Origin: an uncultured Chloroflexia bacterium | Lineage (GTDB): Bacteria; Chloroflexota; Limnocylindria; Limnocylindrales; CSP1-4 | Direction of reading: 5' to 3' | Assembly: GCA_963724095.1 (NCBI GenBank) | Contig: CAVRTH010000019.1 | Location: 536,640-600,639, forward strand | Length of the DNA: 64,000 nt | Part shown: in pieces, positions 23,267 through 45,644 of the stretch | Numbering within the stretch: position 1 is the stretch's first letter | Layout of the letters: each line of letters begins with the position of its first letter | The notes under the pieces: generated by a model | Seen by the model: only the letters and a program-made list of their open reading frames with translations | Database searches by the model: none | What the model was told of the DNA's origin: nothing | Translations under genes and position numbers: made by a program

Positions 23267-24181
23267 ATGACGTGGGATTCCCAGGGCCCCGCGACGCCGC
23301 AGGATCCGCGCGCGGCCGGTGCCTACCAGCAGCCGCAGGGGCAAGAGCCTCCGCCTGGCTACGCGCCACCGCCCGGCTATGGGCCGCCACCCGGCTACGC
23401 GCCACCACCACCGCCCGGCTATGGGCCACCCTCACAGGATCCCTGGGGCCAGCCGCCACCGCCAGGGAGTCAGCCGCCCCCGCCGGGCTACGGTGGACAA
23501 CAGGGCCCGTATGGTGCGCCGCAGCCGATGTGGCAGCCGCCGCCCGCCTACCCGCTCGCGCCGGACGCTTACCCCGTCAACGTCTCCTACGACCGGGAGG
23601 CGGGGATCAATCGTGCCTGGGGTATCCCCATCGTCGGGCAGCTGATCCGCTGGGTCCTGGCCATCCCGCACTTCATCGTGATCATGCTCCTGGCCATCGT
23701 GGCCGCCATCCAGATCCTTGTGGCCTGGATCCCGGTCCTGATCCTGGGCCGCTTCCCCGGCTGGGGCTACCGTTGGATCGGTGGTCTCCTGGGCTACAAC
23801 CTGCGTGTGACCGCGTACCTGCTGCTGATGACGCCGACGTATCCGCCGTTCTCGCTCTCGGGTGAGGAACATCCGGTGAGCGTGCGTTTCGACGAGGGCG
23901 TGCGCATCAACCGGCTCTGGGGCATCCCGCTCATCGGCCAGTTGGTGCGTGCCATCCTGCTCATCCCCCACCTCATCATCCTGTGGCTCCTCGCGATCCT
24001 GGTCTGGTTCCTGATGCTCGTCGTTTGGGTGCCCGTACTGTTCCTCGGCCGACAGGCCGACATCATCTACACCCTGGTCGGTGGCTTCTACCGCTGGCAG
24101 CTGCGCGTGAGCGCCTACGTGCTGCTGATGGTCGATCGCTACCCACCCTTCTCACTCGGAGAGGACGACCCGCGACTGTGA
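23267..24181 (+). CDS. tandem DUF4389 membrane protein with a Pro/Gly/Tyr-rich N-terminal repeat region
   Basis: Two DUF4389-like units (WGIPxxGQLxR...YRWxxRVxAYxLLM.DRYPPFSL) preceded by (PPPGYxP)n repeats. Confidence 0.7.
   Translation: MTWDSQGPATPQDPRAAGAYQQPQGQEPPPGYAPPPGYGPPPGYAPPPPPGYGPPSQDPWGQPPPPGSQPPPPGYGGQQGPYGAPQPMWQPPPAYPLAPDAYPVNVSYDREAGINRAWGIPIVGQLIRWVLAIPHFIVIMLLAIVAAIQILVAWIPVLILGRFPGWGYRWIGGLLGYNLRVTAYLLLMTPTYPPFSLSGEEHPVSVRFDEGVRINRLWGIPLIGQLVRAILLIPHLIILWLLAILVWFLMLVVWVPVLFLGRQADIIYTLVGGFYRWQLRVSAYVLLMVDRYPPFSLGEDDPRL
23335..23480 (+). repeat. imperfect tandem nucleotide repeats of about 27-33 nt encoding (A/G)PPPGYGPPPGY
   Basis: ccgcccggctatgggccgccacccggctacgcgccacca repeated with variation. 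Confidence 0.5.
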
Positions 24182-24955: not shown

Positions 24956-25485
24956 GTGCGCACTACTGTCCCGAGCTCGGGAGCCCTCCATTTCTCCACG
25001 CGCGGCGAGTACGGCGTCCGCCTCATGGTCGAGCTTGCCCGCCACCACGGCAGTGGCCCCGTGAGCCTGTCGGAGATGGCCGACCACGAGTCCCTGCCGC
25101 GTCCGTACCTGGAGCAACTGGTGGTGAGCCTGCGCGAAGCGGACCTGGTCACCAGCACTCGCGGCGCACGCGGCGGTTACGAGCTGTCGAGGTCACCTGC
25201 GGCCATCCGCATGAGCGAGGTGATCACCGCGCTCGAAGGGCCCATCGCGCCCATGATCTGCGCCAGCGATGACCCACACCACGCAGAGGCGTGCCAGCGT
25301 GCCGGCTTCTGCAACGTCGAGCAGCTGTGGCTGCGCGTCCGAGACGCCATCGTGGTTGCCCTCGACTCCATGACCCTCGAGGAACTCGCCGAGCCGCGGC
25401 TCGGCCACCCTGCCCATCCCCAACCGGCCCTCGTGGCCATCCAGCCGCTCTCAGAGCGACCCATCAAGGAGCCAGTCGCCCAGCC

Positions 25486-25489
<4 letters not shown>
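24956..25489 (+). CDS. Rrf2-family transcriptional regulator (IscR/CymR-like)
   Basis: N-terminal winged-helix LHFSTRGEYGVRLMVELA...ARGGYEL and three Cys in the C-terminal half (ICASDD, EACQRAGFCN). Confidence 0.75.
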
Positions 25490-26403
<914 letters not shown>

Positions 26404-26451
26404 CCGGTCCGATGCGACTGTCCGCCCGGCCGCCACGCTGACACCTGACCG

Positions 26452-27724
26452 ATGAACACCACGACTCCCCTGGACCCCGAGGTCATCCGACGCGACTTCC
26501 CCATCTTCGAGCGGGAGTTCCATGGCCAGCGCCTGGACTACCTCGATAGTGCTGCCACGGCCCTGAAGCCGCGCGTGGTGTCCGAGGCGGTCGACGGCTA
26601 CAACCGTCGCTATAGCGCCAACGTCCATCGCGGCATCTACACCATCGGCGAGGAGGCCACGGCGGCCTACGAGGGTGCACGCGAGAAGGTGGCCCGCTTC
26701 ATCAACGCACCCGACCCGCGCGAGATCGTCTTCGTCCGTAACGCCACTGAGGCCATCAACCTGGTGGCCTACGCCTGGGGCAGGCGCAACATCGGTCGTG
26801 CCGACGCCATCGTGCTGACTGAGCTGGAGCACCACTCCAACCTGGTGCCCTGGCAGCTGCTGGCACAGGAGAAGGACGCCGATCTCGAATTCGTGCCCTT
26901 CGATGCCCAGGGCCGGCTCGATCATGGATTCCTGGGAGGTACTGCTGCGGACCCGTCCCAAGCTGGTCGCCTTCACCCACAAGTCCAACACCCTCGGCAC
27001 CGTCCTCCCGGTCGCGCAGATGGTGGCGCAGGCACACGATGTCGGCGCCCTGGTGCTCGTCGATGGCGCGCAGGCCGTGCCCCACATGGCCGTCGACGTG
27101 CAGGACATGGGTGCCGACTTCTACGTCTTCTCCGGCCACAAGGTGCTGGGTCCCGCTGGCTCCGGCGCACTGTGGGCACGAGCCGACCTGCTCGAGGAGA
27201 TGCCGCCGTTCCTCAGCGGTGGCGAGATGGTCAACTCGGTCCACCTGCGACACACGACCTTCAACGACATCCCCCACAAGTTCGAAGCCGGTACGCCCGA
27301 TGTGTCCGCCGCCATCGGGCTCGGCGCCGCGGTCGACTACCTCACCGACCTCGGCATGGACCGGGTGGCGGCCCACGAGGAGATGCTCACCGCGTACGCG
27401 CTCGAGCTACTGCCCCGGGAGGTGCCGGGGATCCAGATCCACGGCCCTGCGGAGGCCGCCGATCGGGCCGGCATCGTCACCTTCACCCTGCCACAGGCGC
27501 ACGCCCACGACGTCGCTACGCTCCTCGACCGTGAGGCCATCGCCATCCGCGCCGGCCACCACTGTACGCAGCCGTTGCACGAGCGACTGGGTGAGACTGC
27601 CACCTGTCGCGCGTCCTTCGGCGTCTATAGCGGCAGCGACGATATCGACCGCCTGGCCACCGCACTGCGCGGTGTCCAACGCATCTTCGGGCGAGCTCCG
27701 GCCCCTGCCGGCAGCCCGTCGTAG
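26452..27724 (+). CDS. sufS: cysteine desulfurase SufS (group II), apparent frame break near 26900-26940
   Basis: YLDSAATALKP, VHRG N-terminal half in ORF 26452-27534. C-terminal half (FSGHKVLGPAGSGAL, RAGHHC) in ORF 26903-27724. Confidence 0.8.
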
Positions 27725-27760
27725 AGAACCACGACCACATCGAGTACCCTGCACTCTCCC

Positions 27761-28160
27761 ATGGATGACCTCTACCGCGACGAGATCCTCGAGCACTACC
27801 GCGAGCCCCACAACTTCGGCACACTGGACGCGCCTGACGCCGTCCACGAAGGCCACAACCCGCTCTGCGGCGACCGCATCACGATGATGCTGACCGTCGA
27901 CGCGGCCGGGAACATCAGCGACGTCGCCTTCACCGGCCGGGGCTGCGCCATCAGCCAAGCCTCCGCGTCCTTGCTTACCGACGAGGTCAAGGGTCGTCCG
28001 GTGACCGAGGTCGAGGCGATGCGAAACCAGGACGTCCTCGACCTCCTGGGTATCGAGATCGAGCCCGGCGCGCCTGAAGTGCGCGCTCCTCTCCCTCGAT
28101 ACGATGCAGCGTGCGCTGGAGGGGCGCCACCGCGACACGACCACCGACGCCGGCCACTGA
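27761..28160 (+). CDS. sufU: SufU/NifU-like Fe-S scaffold, apparent frame break near 28060-28075
   Basis: MDDLYRDEILEHYREPHNFG, NPLCGD, GRGCAISQASAS. The expected C-terminus RLKCALLSLDTMQRALEGRH is in the +1 frame, ending with TGA at 28158-28160. Confidence 0.7.
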
Positions 28161-28221
28161 CGACCGACCCACTTCGCCACCTCGACTGCCCGAGTCGATC
28201 CATCATGGAGCCACACTCCCG

Positions 28222-29406
28222 ATGAGCAAGTCATACCGAGACCTCTTGCGCGAGGCGCGTGAGCAGGTACCCGAGGTGACCACGGCCCAGGCCGAGCTGG
28301 CCGCCGAACGTGGCGCCACCCTCCTCGACGTCCGCGAGGGGAGCGAGTGGGAGCAAGGTCACGTCAGCGGTGCCCGCCATGTCTCCAAGTCCTACATCGA
28401 GCAAGAGATCGAAGGCATCGCGCCCGACCGCTCCCTGCCGATCGTGGTCTATTGCGCCAGCGGCATCCGTTCGCTCTTCGTGAGTCAGACGTTGCAGCAG
28501 ATGGGCTACACCGATGTCACCTCCATGCGGGGTGGGTTCCAGGCCTGGAAGGCCGAGGGCCGTGCCTGGGTCCAGCCCACCGTGCTGACCCCGGAGCAGA
28601 AGTCGCGCTACTCGCGCCACCTTCTCATCCCCGAGGTCGGAGCCGAGGGCCAAGTCCGGCTGCTCGACTCGAGGGTGCTCTTCGTCGGTGCCGGCGGTCT
28701 GGGCTCACCGGCCATGCTGTACCTGGCCGCGGCCGGTGTCGGCACCATCGGCATCGTCGACTTCGACGTGGTGGACGCCTCCAACCTGCAGCGACAGGTC
28801 ATCCACCGCACCGACCGCGTGGGCATGCGCAAGGTCGAGTCGGCGGCCATGACCATCAGCGAACTCAATCCCGATGTGAAGGTCCTTCCCCACGAGGTCA
28901 TGCTGGGCCCAGACAACGTCGCGGAGCTGATCGCAGGCTACGATCTCGTCTTCGATGGGACCGACACGTTCGAAACGCGCTACGTCCTCAACGATGCCGC
29001 CGTGGCTGCCGGCATCCCGGTGGTGCACGCGTCGGTCTTCCGCTTCGAGGGCCAGCTGACGGTCTTCAAGCCGTACGACGGACCCTGCTACCGCTGTCTG
29101 TACCCCACGCCCCCGCCGCCCGAGCTGGCACCGGGTTGCTCCGTGGCCGGCGTCCTCGGTGTCGTCCCCGGCGTGATGGGCCTGCTGCAGGCCACCGAGG
29201 GCATCAAGGTGCTGCTCGACATCGGCGACTCGCTCGCGGGCCGCCTGCTCATCTACGACGCGCTCGACGGAGCCTTCAGCGAGCTCCAGCTGCGACGCGA
29301 CCCCAAGTGCCCGGCCTGCGGCGACGGCGAGCTCGTCGAACCGGCCGCTGACGGCGTCTTCGCACTACCCACCACTTCAGCTGCCAGGACGGAGGTGAAC
29401 GCATGA
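28222..29406 (+). CDS. sulfur-carrier adenylyltransferase (ThiF/MoeB E1-like) with an N-terminal rhodanese domain, i.e. reversed order relative to MoeZ
   Basis: Rhodanese CxxGxR (VVYCASGIRS) at residues around 85-95, then YSRHLLIPEVG, VLFVGAGGLGSP and two CxxC pairs (CYRC, CPAC). Confidence 0.8.
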   Translation: MSKSYRDLLREAREQVPEVTTAQAELAAERGATLLDVREGSEWEQGHVSGARHVSKSYIEQEIEGIAPDRSLPIVVYCASGIRSLFVSQTLQQMGYTDVTSMRGGFQAWKAEGRAWVQPTVLTPEQKSRYSRHLLIPEVGAEGQVRLLDSRVLFVGAGGLGSPAMLYLAAAGVGTIGIVDFDVVDASNLQRQVIHRTDRVGMRKVESAAMTISELNPDVKVLPHEVMLGPDNVAELIAGYDLVFDGTDTFETRYVLNDAAVAAGIPVVHASVFRFEGQLTVFKPYDGPCYRCLYPTPPPPELAPGCSVAGVLGVVPGVMGLLQATEGIKVLLDIGDSLAGRLLIYDALDGAFSELQLRRDPKCPACGDGELVEPAADGVFALPTTSAARTEVNA

Positions 29407-29678
29407 CTGCGGTCCGGATCCCGCCGGTGCTGCGCGGGCAGGCCGGCAACCAGAAGAAGGTCGAGGTCACCGGCGCCACGGTGGGCGAGGCCCTCGCGTC
29501 ACTGCTCGAGCAGTTCCCCGGCCTGCGCGAGCAGGTCTTCACCGCTGACGGCACGCTCAACCGCTTCGTCAACGTCTACGTCAACGGACGCGACGTGCGC
29601 TATGAGCAGGAGCTGGCGACCCCGATCGGGGAAAGTGACGAGGTCATCCTGCTGCCGGCCATGGCCGGGGGTCGCTAG
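29403..29678 (+). CDS. cysO: MoaD/ThiS-family sulfur carrier protein (CysO-like), C-terminal GG
   Basis: 91 aa ending ...ILLPAMAGG-R; start overlaps the upstream stop. Confidence 0.75.
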   Translation: MTAVRIPPVLRGQAGNQKKVEVTGATVGEALASLLEQFPGLREQVFTADGTLNRFVNVYVNGRDVRYEQELATPIGESDEVILLPAMAGGR

Positions 29679-29693: not shown

Positions 29694-30713
29694 GTGGATC
29701 CGACGACGGAACGACAGTCGGGGACAGAGATCGACGCGCTGCGTCCGCATGCCCACGGAGGCCACGCGCGCCACGGCGGGCGCTTCCCCTCGATCGTCGA
29801 CGCCATCGGCTTCACGCCGCTGGTCGAGGTGCCCAACGTCTGCCCCAACCCCAACGTGCGGCTGTACGTGAAGCTCGAGTTCATGAACCCGACCGGGTCC
29901 GTCAAGGACCGCGTGGCCAAGTACCTCATGGAGGACCTGGAGGCTTCCGGTCGCCTCCAGCCCGACTCCATCATCATCGAGCCCACCAGCGGCAATACCG
30001 GCATCGGCTTGGCCATGATCGCGCGCCGCAAGGGTTACCGCGTGGCCGTGGTGGTGCCGGACAACGTGACCATGGAGCGGCGCCAGCTGCTGGCGCTCTT
30101 CGGTGCGGAGGTCATCGATTCGCCCGGACAACTGGGCTCCAACGGGGCGGTGGCCCTGGCCAAGCACCTCGTTGAGAAGGACAGCCGCTTCGTCATGCCG
30201 TACCAGTACGGCAACCCTGCCAACCCGCGGGCCCACGAGGAGACGACCGCCGAGGAGATCATCGCCGACTGTCCCGAGGTAGACGCGTTCGTGGCCGGGC
30301 TGGGCACCGGCGGGACGCTCATGGGCGTGGGCCGTCGCCTGCGGCGACACAACCCCGACGTGCGCATCTATGCGGCCGAGCCACTGCCCGGCGAGCGGCT
30401 ACAGGGACTGCGCTCGCTCGACGAGGGCTTCATCCCCGAGATCTTCGACCCCACCGCCATCGACGGCAAGTTCCTGGTCTCCAACACCGACGCCATCGGG
30501 TCGCTCCGTGAACTCACCGAGAAAGAGGGCATCTTCGCCGGCGTCTCCTGCGGCGCGGTGATGGTGGCCGCCAAGCAGCTGGCACGGGAGATGGAACGGG
30601 GCACCATCGTGGCGCTGCTGGCCGACGGCGGCTGGAAGTACCTCAGCGAGGATATCTGGACGCGCGACCTCGATGCCGACGAGGACGAGATCGACAGCCT
30701 GAACCTGTGGTGA
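29694..30713 (+). CDS. cysM: PLP-dependent cysteine synthase (CysM, O-phosphoserine/thiocarboxylate-dependent type)
   Basis: PTGSVKDRVAKYLMED, EPTSGNTGIGLAM, LYQYGNPANP; collinear with CysM of the mycobacterial mec-cysO-cysM locus. Start probably downstream of 29694. Confidence 0.85.
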   Translation: MDPTTERQSGTEIDALRPHAHGGHARHGGRFPSIVDAIGFTPLVEVPNVCPNPNVRLYVKLEFMNPTGSVKDRVAKYLMEDLEASGRLQPDSIIIEPTSGNTGIGLAMIARRKGYRVAVVVPDNVTMERRQLLALFGAEVIDSPGQLGSNGAVALAKHLVEKDSRFVMPYQYGNPANPRAHEETTAEEIIADCPEVDAFVAGLGTGGTLMGVGRRLRRHNPDVRIYAAEPLPGERLQGLRSLDEGFIPEIFDPTAIDGKFLVSNTDAIGSLRELTEKEGIFAGVSCGAVMVAAKQLAREMERGTIVALLADGGWKYLSEDIWTRDLDADEDEIDSLNLW

Positions 30714-31291
30714 ACGACGAGCGGGATAGGGATCGCGCAGCGGAGGTCCTGTCCTCAGCCGATGAGCCGGCCGTGGCCGGGGACAGCGCGGTCGTGCCCG
30801 ACGTCGCAGCCTGGCAGCGGGCCGCTGCCAGTGGCGCTTCGTCCGGCGGGCGGGGCGGGCGTGCGCCCTGGGTCCCGGCATCGGCGTCGCTCCCGCCGTC
30901 GATCCGCGGCGAGCTTGTCGACTGGCTACGCGGGGCGCTGCCCAACGAGGGCTGTGGTGTGCTCGTCTCCAACCGCACCGCCGAGGACGGTGGCGTGCCC
31001 TCACGTTTCGTGAGCCTGCGCAACGTCGCCGCCTCGCCCTACCGCTACCTCATGGATAGTGGAGAGCTGCTACGGGTGATGCTCGAGATCGACGACGCCG
31101 ACGAGGTGGTGTGGGGCATCGTCCACTCACACGTGGCCTCTCCGCCATACCCATCGCCGACCGACATCGGCCTTGCCGCCTATCCCGATGCGGTCTATGT
31201 GCTGGCGTCCTTCGCGGCCGAGCCGCCGGAGGTTCGGGCCTGGACCATCGTGGAAGGCTCCGTCAACGAGGTGGTCCTGGAGCGGACATAG
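30707..31291 (+). CDS. mec: JAMM/MPN+ metalloprotease (Mec+-like CysO deconjugase)
   Basis: JAMM motif HSHVASPPYPSPTD (HxHx7Sx2D) plus an upstream Glu; start probably later than 30707. Confidence 0.75.
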   Translation: MVNDERDRDRAAEVLSSADEPAVAGDSAVVPDVAAWQRAAASGASSGGRGGRAPWVPASASLPPSIRGELVDWLRGALPNEGCGVLVSNRTAEDGGVPSRFVSLRNVAASPYRYLMDSGELLRVMLEIDDADEVVWGIVHSHVASPPYPSPTDIGLAAYPDAVYVLASFAAEPPEVRAWTIVEGSVNEVVLERT

Positions 31292-45504: not shown

Positions 45505-45644
45505 GTCTCCTCCGTGCCACCAGGGCGCTGCCTTCTGGACGCGGGACCGGGCTCGCCACTGCTCGACGTGATCCGGTTCGGCGACCGGGATGGATCACGC
45601 GTCTTCGCTTCCCGTACTGGACTTGGCTCGGAAGGCTCCCGATT

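Follow-up and report, generated by a model that had tools for sequence, protein, structure and literature searches.

Every characterised or solved protein that fuses an E1-like adenylyltransferase to a rhodanese domain (MoeZR, MoeBR, MOCS3 and Uba4) carries the rhodanese domain at its C-terminus. What, then, is a gene that reads in the opposite order, and what might its product do? Such a gene occupies positions 28222-29406 of the forward strand in the window analysed here, a stretch of 64,000 nucleotides (nt) from an uncultured Chloroflexia bacterium. The original prediction, made from the letters of the window, described it as a rhodanese-first, domain-swapped relative of MoeZ and MOCS3. The rhodanese-first architecture is real but ordinary, and is already catalogued. 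The product is best read, with a probability of roughly 0.8, as a bifunctional E1 in which a rhodanese domain at the N-terminus and a zinc-binding MoeB-type adenylyltransferase serve the CysO-like carrier encoded by the overlapping gene, for CysM-dependent cysteine synthesis.

Domain order and integrity of the gene

The gene and its parts are as follows, with lengths and positions in the protein given in amino acids (aa) and AF2 denoting AlphaFold2.

28222..29406, + strand: rhodanese plus MoeB-type E1-like adenylyltransferase, full open reading frame (ORF), 394 aa (Pfam, NCBIfam, translation)
28222..28575, + strand: rhodanese domain, aa 1-118, with active-site loop C78-A-S-G-I-R-S (Pfam PF00581, PDB matches, AF2)
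28546..28608, + strand: junction, aa 109-129, from the last rhodanese helix to the first adenylation-domain helix (R129-Y-S-R-H motif) (spacing alignment, AF2)
28585..29337, + strand: ThiF/MoeB adenylation domain, aa 122-372 (Pfam PF00899, PDB, Foldseek, conservation)
29338..29403, + strand: C-terminal tail, aa 373-394, predicted to be disordered; its length varies among family members (AF2 confidence below 50, tail-length distribution)

The enclosing open frame runs from 28111 to 29406 (+), and in the ORF list the ATG at 28222 gives the 394-aa product, starting MSKSYRDLL. This start coincides with the start methionine of close homologues of 394-395 aa (consensus MTKSYRDLLREAR), and a GGAG lies 11 nt 5' of it. 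At the other end, the stop codon TGA (29404-29406) overlaps the ATG (29403) of the CysO-like gene in the form ATGA. A 100% identical protein (P0001) is already present in NCBI/ENA, on a 1.14-Mb contig.

Relatives at the genome level comprised 584 stretches in contigs from one genome per species, and the related loci discussed below are the best 80 of these 584. Positions 28222-29406 form one intact ORF without frame error. The suspicion that the N-terminal part might belong to a separate upstream ORF, joined by a frame error near 28540-28560, failed because a single profile spans the junction and because the 80 loci are colinear. The profile, NCBIfam NF006444, aligns in one stretch over aa 5-372, and the colinearity of the loci begins at residue 1-16 and reaches about residue 366, the sole exception being one locus truncated by the end of its contig (L023). 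With the same exception, at least 80 species genomes encode colinear full-length homologues.

Pfam places Rhodanese (PF00581) at aa 27-112 (E 1.1e-19) and, after it, ThiF (PF00899) at aa 130-365 (E 2.7e-82), and both E-values are far beyond chance. The predicted complete rhodanese domain is indeed there: the N-terminal third is a single-domain rhodanese whose closest solved counterparts are PDB 6mxv (1e-39) and 1yt8 (2e-31), and the loop VVYCASGIRS forms aa 75-84, with the Cys78 codon at nt 28453-28455. In an alignment of 115 rhodanese-first (N-type) proteins, from which residue conservation and junction spacing were read, Cys78 is present in all 115, R83 in 114, S84 in 113 and G81 in 112. All six cysteines of the 394-aa protein occupy conserved functional positions in this alignment. 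The active-site loop CxxGxRS is common to both architectures; N-type proteins favour CA[SG]GxRS and those with a C-terminal rhodanese (C-type) favour C[HRK][SH]GxRS, a preference that is suggestive, not decisive, as a discriminator between them.

As had been predicted, the ThiF/MoeB nucleotide-binding fold follows; it makes up the C-terminal two thirds of the protein. The motif VLFVGAGGLGSP lies at aa 152-163, within the stretch VLFVG156AGGLGSP, where GxGxxG reads G156-A-G-G-L-G; D180/D182, N188, R191, Q192 and D248 are present as well. The nucleotide-site residues G156/G158/G159, D180, D182, N188, R191, Q192 and D248 are kept in 115/115 N-type proteins, and R129 in 114/115. Both zinc knuckles that had been read from the translation were found again, as CYRC (aa 289-292) and CPAC (aa 363-366), giving a zinc site of C289 (115/115), C292 (115/115), C363 (114/115) and C366 (108/115). 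These four cysteines are retained in almost every close relative, whichever its architecture, and consequently do not discriminate N-type from C-type proteins. The sixth cysteine, Cys306 of the crossover loop (codon at nt 29137-29139), is conserved in 114/115 N-type proteins and corresponds in position to the thioester Cys202 of Chaetomium Uba4 (PMC7527816).

A structural model of the 394-aa protein (AlphaFold2 monomer) reached a mean predicted local distance difference test score (pLDDT) of 80.8 and a predicted template modelling score of 0.59, with the junction at low confidence. Values of 83-96 were obtained across aa 1-120, falling below 50 at aa 128-135; confidence was also low in the crossover loop (aa 301-311) and the tail (aa 373-394). 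The junction is short and its length is fixed: in 92/115 N-type proteins, W109 and R129 stand exactly 20 residues apart, with P119 and L122 also conserved. By sequence, the best PDB matches were Uba4 (6yub, 4e-58), Escherichia coli MoeB (1jw9_B, 2.3e-57) and E. coli ThiF (1zud, 5.7e-56). Foldseek comparison of the model gave target-normalised template modelling (TM) scores of 0.90-0.93 to MoeB/ThiF, with 0.90 for MoeB; no PDB chain spanned the whole model, the query-normalised TM being ≤ 0.58 for any chain.

Occurrence, naming and comparison with known enzymes

The frequency of this domain order was assessed by scanning 1.84 billion cluster representatives exhaustively with HMMER, which returned 6,208 matches at E ≤ 1e-30. 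The best 150 of these (representatives of 50%-identity clusters) were each scored for rhodanese position. Sixty-two have the rhodanese domain first, the same order that domain annotation gives here (Rhodanese at aa 27-112 before ThiF at aa 130-365), while 66 have it last and 22 lack it. NCBIfam keeps a curated equivalog model for exactly the rhodanese-first architecture, NF006444/PRK08762 (‘molybdopterin-synthase adenylyltransferase MoeB’, 387 positions), which the protein matches at 540.6 bits against a cutoff of 449, over profile positions 3-373. It also has the N-terminal rhodanese with a CxxGxR[ST] loop and the C-terminal ThiF/MoeB domain with two CxxC motifs that go with membership. In domain order, catalytic cysteine, zinc motifs and length there is no structural difference from this family; only the inferred partner differs, being CysO here and, by implication of the family name, MoaD there.

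The distribution is correspondingly broad. Rhodanese-first proteins occur in the Chloroflexota, Actinomycetota, Acidobacteriota, Myxococcota, Pseudomonadota and Bacteroidota. The hosts of the best 80 of 584 loci are Chloroflexota, Solirubrobacterales, Acidimicrobiia, Acidobacteria and Myxococcaceae, and further carriers include Burkholderia cenocepacia, a gammaproteobacterial metagenome-assembled genome (MAG) and Bacteroidales. Plasmid-borne genes were found in Rhizobium, Sinorhizobium, Mycetohabitans and Piscinibacter, with the RefSeq label ‘moeB’ wherever the record was annotated. A word-indexed search scored at least 8,000 candidates, and the named close relatives were mostly Chloroflexota/Limnocylindrales MAG proteins called MoeB.

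The predicted order of an N-terminal rhodanese and a C-terminal ThiF domain is upheld, but the rarity that the prediction implied is not, given a dedicated NCBIfam model, 62 of 150 representatives, six phyla and routine RefSeq annotation as ‘moeB’. The family is already known, large, curated and routinely annotated, and it matters little as the outcome of a genome scan. Two neighbour-joining trees did not distinguish a single origin of the rhodanese-first form from several. The ThiF-domain tree, of 128 sequences, has 33 changes of architecture; the rhodanese-domain tree, of 118 sequences, has 15, and in it N-type and C-type proteins form large clades of one type each. PDB sequence and Foldseek searches found no solved structure of the rhodanese-first form, and literature searches found no publication on it. 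Since all characterised or solved fusions are of the C-terminal type, as the prediction had correctly stated for the characterised ones (PMC3227635, PMC7527816), the equally common N-terminal form poses a tractable structural question on how the persulfide is handed over.

As a label for the whole family, ‘molybdopterin-synthase adenylyltransferase MoeB’ is probably too narrow. On a Rhizobium leguminosarum plasmid (NZ_CP030762.1, 73679-84761; locus L084) and on pBRH01 of Mycetohabitans rhizoxinica (L086), a rhodanese-first ‘moeB’ adjoins a MoaD/ThiS gene within a YcaO/TfuA/LanM cluster. YcaO/TfuA/LanM/methyltransferase clusters with a rhodanese-first ‘moeB’ include a Nif11-type precursor. In B. 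cenocepacia (L081/L082), the neighbours are a small ORF and genes for DUF692 (MbnB/TglH), a carbamoyltransferase and YcaO, and in Piscinibacter (L085), DUF692 and carbamoyltransferase genes. The rhodanese-first architecture thus appears to be a sulfur supplier for peptide natural-product pathways of the thioamide type. Because the same architecture sits with ThiS-like genes in YcaO/TfuA/LanM clusters, the family name is to be taken as generic and not as evidence of a role in molybdenum cofactor synthesis.

How does the protein compare with enzymes that have been studied? Among those most like it is Mycobacterium tuberculosis MoeZR (Rv3206c), which, together with CysO, CysM and Mec+, likewise has E1 and rhodanese domains in one chain, matching partner genes and the same expected chemistry (PMC3227635). 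Four differences separate the two systems. The rhodanese domain is C-terminal in MoeZR and N-terminal here; the two CxxC motifs, present in MoeB/MoeBR, are mostly absent from MoeZ/MoeZR (PMC3227635), whereas the 394-aa protein has both; the cysO operon contains the E1 gene here; and M. tuberculosis CysO ends at Gly-Gly, whereas the carrier here has one extra residue. The description as a reversed or domain-swapped MoeZ is accordingly right about the order but imprecise about MoeZ, as the adenylation domain is of MoeB type with both CxxC motifs and the protein fails the MoeZ model. Against the MoeZ/MoeZR model (NF005902), it scores 368.4 bits in two split stretches, with a cutoff of 647.

Uba4/MOCS3 (PDB 6yub, 6yuc) shares a homologous adenylation domain (E 4e-58, about 40% identity), the crossover-loop cysteine, the zinc site and the use of a rhodanese persulfide cysteine. 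Its layout is not that of the present protein: the order is reversed, and only the adenylation domain aligns to 6yub (query-normalised TM ≤ 0.58). The Uba4 rhodanese domain is preceded by a linker (aa 286-321, about 35 residues) that fills the groove in which the C-terminus of Urm1 binds, and that gates the use of ATP (PMC7527816). Here, by contrast, the rhodanese domain comes before the adenylation domain, by way of a short fixed junction, and a tail predicted to be disordered forms the C-terminal end. The best structural matches for aa 122-367 (41-43% identity) are E. coli MoeB (1jw9) and ThiF (1zud); they have the same zinc-binding CxxC pairs, but they lack a rhodanese domain and receive sulfur from separate proteins (PMC3227635). 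By analogy with MoeZR/MoeBR, MOCS3 and Uba4, the protein would be expected to work by pairing E1-like adenylation with a rhodanese persulfide. Given the short fixed junction without a Uba4-like linker, it is reasonable to suppose that persulfide delivery differs from that of the C-terminal form.

The cysO operon and a proposed role in cysteine synthesis

Three genes follow on the same strand.

29403..29678, + strand: CysO-like sulfur carrier of the ThiS/MoaD fold, 91 aa (Pfam ThiS 9e-14; PDB 3dwg_C)
29694..30713, + strand: CysM-type pyridoxal phosphate-dependent cysteine synthase, 339 aa (Pfam PALP 1.5e-68)
30707..31291, + strand: Mec-like JAMM/MPN+ metallopeptidase, 194 aa from a GTG start (Pfam Prok-JAB 1.8e-17; PDB 2kks 2e-12)

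That a CysO-like gene adjoins the E1 gene at 29403-29678 had been predicted, and the assignment holds: its product matches Pfam ThiS at 9e-14, and its top PDB match is M. tuberculosis CysO (3dwg_C, 2.3e-18). The synthase is closest to M. tuberculosis CysM (3dwg_A/3dki, 4e-90), 3dwg being the entry for the CysO-CysM complex. The alignment with M. tuberculosis CysM retains the arginine of ...ALRNMDEGF..., a residue that we take to be tied to the O-phosphoserine preference of the mycobacterial enzyme. The JAMM motif E...HSHx7Sx2D can be read in the translation of 30707-31291. By gene content, that is, a Gly-Gly carrier, a CysM-type synthase and a JAMM peptidase side by side, the locus belongs with the CysO-dependent systems.

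This neighbourhood is conserved. Of the 80 related loci, 67 have a CysO-like gene downstream on the same strand. CysM was found within 3 kb at 55 loci and Mec at 35, with Mec further downstream in many more. The one-strand order Rhd-ThiF, CysO, CysM, Mec recurs across loci of Chloroflexota and Actinomycetota. The operon is a known type, an ordinary one for CysO/CysM cysteine synthesis. Iyer, Burroughs and Aravind (2006) already listed the combination of ThiS/MoaD, E1-rhodanese, JAB and cysteine synthase, including Chloroflexus (PMC1779556, Table 1 row 4c), and their text speaks solely of carboxy-terminal rhodanese domains (PMC1779556).

The carrier here ends in ...AMAGG-R (29664-29678), one residue past Gly-Gly. 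In a survey of 67 CysO-like carriers adjoining a rhodanese-first E1 in related loci, 20 stop at Gly-Gly and 46 run 1-7 residues past it (among these endings are R, A, AR, SR and AA). The 46 extended carriers fit a need for trimming by a JAMM peptidase, which implies that carriers of this group are as a rule matured at the C-terminus in a JAMM-dependent way.

Activation of CysO is the likeliest role because of the conserved operon with CysO, CysM and Mec and because M. tuberculosis CysO and CysM are the best solved relatives of its products. MoeZR-dependent CysO activation and rhodanese persulfide chemistry have been described (PMC3227635), as has the thioester/acyl-disulfide scheme of Uba4 (PMC7527816). 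Judging from M. tuberculosis CysO, CysM, Mec and MoeZR, E. coli MoeB and Uba4, from which the carrier specificity and sulfur donor are also extrapolated, the reaction may proceed in five steps: (i) Mec (JAMM) would cut off the carrier's additional C-terminal residue, Arg91, and so expose Gly-Gly; (ii) the ThiF domain would bind ATP (through GxGxxG, Arg129/Arg132, Asp180/182 and Asp248) and adenylate the terminal glycine of the carrier; (iii) rhodanese Cys78 would be loaded to a persulfide, with SufS/SufU, encoded just upstream, or another source of sulfane sulfur as the possible donor; (iv) the Cys78 persulfide would attack either the acyl-adenylate or, as in Uba4, a thioester at Cys306, giving an acyl-disulfide that is then reduced to the carrier thiocarboxylate; and (v) CysM would join the thiocarboxylate with O-phosphoserine or O-acetylserine, after which an S-to-N acyl shift would occur, and Mec would free cysteine and regenerate the carrier.

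Several points weigh against this interpretation. Literature and PDB searches found no biochemical work on any rhodanese-first member. The NCBIfam family is named MoeB, that is, for MoaD activation. The carrier passes the archaeal SAMP1 model (72.6 bits, cutoff 60), and CysO is absent within 3 kb at 13 of the 80 loci, among which are several short contigs. Finally, the physiological sulfur donor is doubtful, because loading by SufS would spend the sulfur of cysteine on making cysteine; the donor is not known for M. tuberculosis either (PMC3227635).

A possible, if somewhat doubtful, alternative is that the protein is a true MoeB that adenylates MoaD, the adjacency to cysO being secondary, or that it serves MoaD as well as CysO, which M. 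tuberculosis MoeZR also does. It passes an equivalog model bearing that very name, and its MoeB-type adenylation domain, with both CxxC motifs, shares 43% identity with E. coli MoeB across 247 aligned columns when the folds are compared; moreover, MoeZR interacts with MoaD1, MoaD2 and CysO (PMC3227635). However, no moa gene was recognised in the roughly 13 kb of annotated flanks (approximately 17.9-24.7, 25.0-31.8 and 32.8-33.2 kb), and it is CysO, CysM and Mec that are conserved as its gene partners. The name itself carries little weight here, being generic in view of the same-architecture members beside ThiS-like genes in YcaO/TfuA/LanM natural-product clusters. A modest point of wider interest is precisely this difference in partners, CysO, CysM and Mec at the present locus as against ThiS-like genes in peptide-modification clusters on proteobacterial plasmids, which bears on the use of the MoeB name.

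It is very unlikely that the protein is instead the E1 of a conjugation system like those of SAMP or TtuB, in which the carrier would be ligated to target lysines and the JAMM enzyme would act as a deconjugase. Besides the carrier's pass on NCBIfam SAMP1, the E1 domain scores 342 bits on the UbaA (SAMP-activating) model, the JAMM protein matches the desampylase model, and the conserved crossover-loop Cys306 could bear a thioester. Yet both of these enzyme scores fall below their cutoffs (UbaA 342.4 against 450, desampylase 61.8 against 130), leaving the carrier as the only component of an archaeal SAMP/UbaA-like set that passes its model. The best solved relative of that carrier is M. tuberculosis CysO, a CysM-type synthase lies directly downstream in most related loci, and the invariant rhodanese Cys78 points to thiocarboxylate formation.

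Upstream suf genes and other features of the window

If the protein activates CysO in this way, its rhodanese domain would need a source of persulfide, for which SufS/SufU are a candidate. They belong to a block of genes directly upstream.

24956-25489, + strand: Rrf2 regulator
25486-26403, + strand: SufC
26452-27724, + strand: SufS, with a frame break near 26919/26921
27761-28160, + strand: SufU, with a frame break near 28062-28066

Members of this block were found upstream in the closer Chloroflexota relatives only (SufU in 25, SufC in 21 and Rrf2 in 19 of the 80 loci). SufB/SufD were not found in the upstream operon (24956-28160), nor in one relative (L008, 1-6100). The Rrf2 protein scores best on the model for CymR, a regulator of cysteine metabolism, below its cutoff (124.6 against 195).

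A more speculative proposal, which we consider unlikely, is that the rhodanese-first fusion works by a distinct mechanism. A rigid junction would tie Cys78 to the first adenylation helix, which bears the conserved ATP-site motif R129/R132, and, with no gating linker, the geometry of persulfide delivery could be fixed, perhaps reaching across the dimer to the carrier bound by the partner subunit. In this Chloroflexota lineage, SufS/SufU may charge the rhodanese domain directly, and if so, sulfur trafficking for Fe-S clusters and for CysO would be linked.

The two genes have a single break each. The SufS match changes frame after 26919, where profile position 147 is reached (from position 2), and resumes at 26921 in the next frame with positions 150-403, and the SufU C-terminus (PARLKCALLSL...) runs in another frame from about 28065 to the stop at 28160. 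Similar SufC/SufS breaks occur in one relative, a Microflora Danica MAG (L001), and another (L002) is intact. The breaks in SufS and SufU are probably assembly indels rather than signs of pseudogenes. Although these breaks lie directly upstream in the same assembly, an artefactual fusion of a separate rhodanese gene to a moeB gene, by frameshift or misassembly, is excluded by the continuous profile hidden Markov model match, the colinearity of the 80 best loci from independent assemblies (bar the contig-truncated one) and of cultured Rhizobium, Sinorhizobium and Mycetohabitans RefSeq genomes, and the junction length kept in 92 of 115 sequences.

Just upstream of the operon, 23267-24181 (+) encodes a Pro/Gly/Gln-rich N-terminal region followed by two DUF4389 membrane-domain matches, and an ORF at 23983-24741 matches DUF6941. 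Elsewhere in the window, a c-di-GMP-II-GCG riboswitch aptamer lies at 45535-45621 (-), matched at full length in Rfam with 55.5 bits against a gathering threshold of 47.9 (E 2.3e-07).

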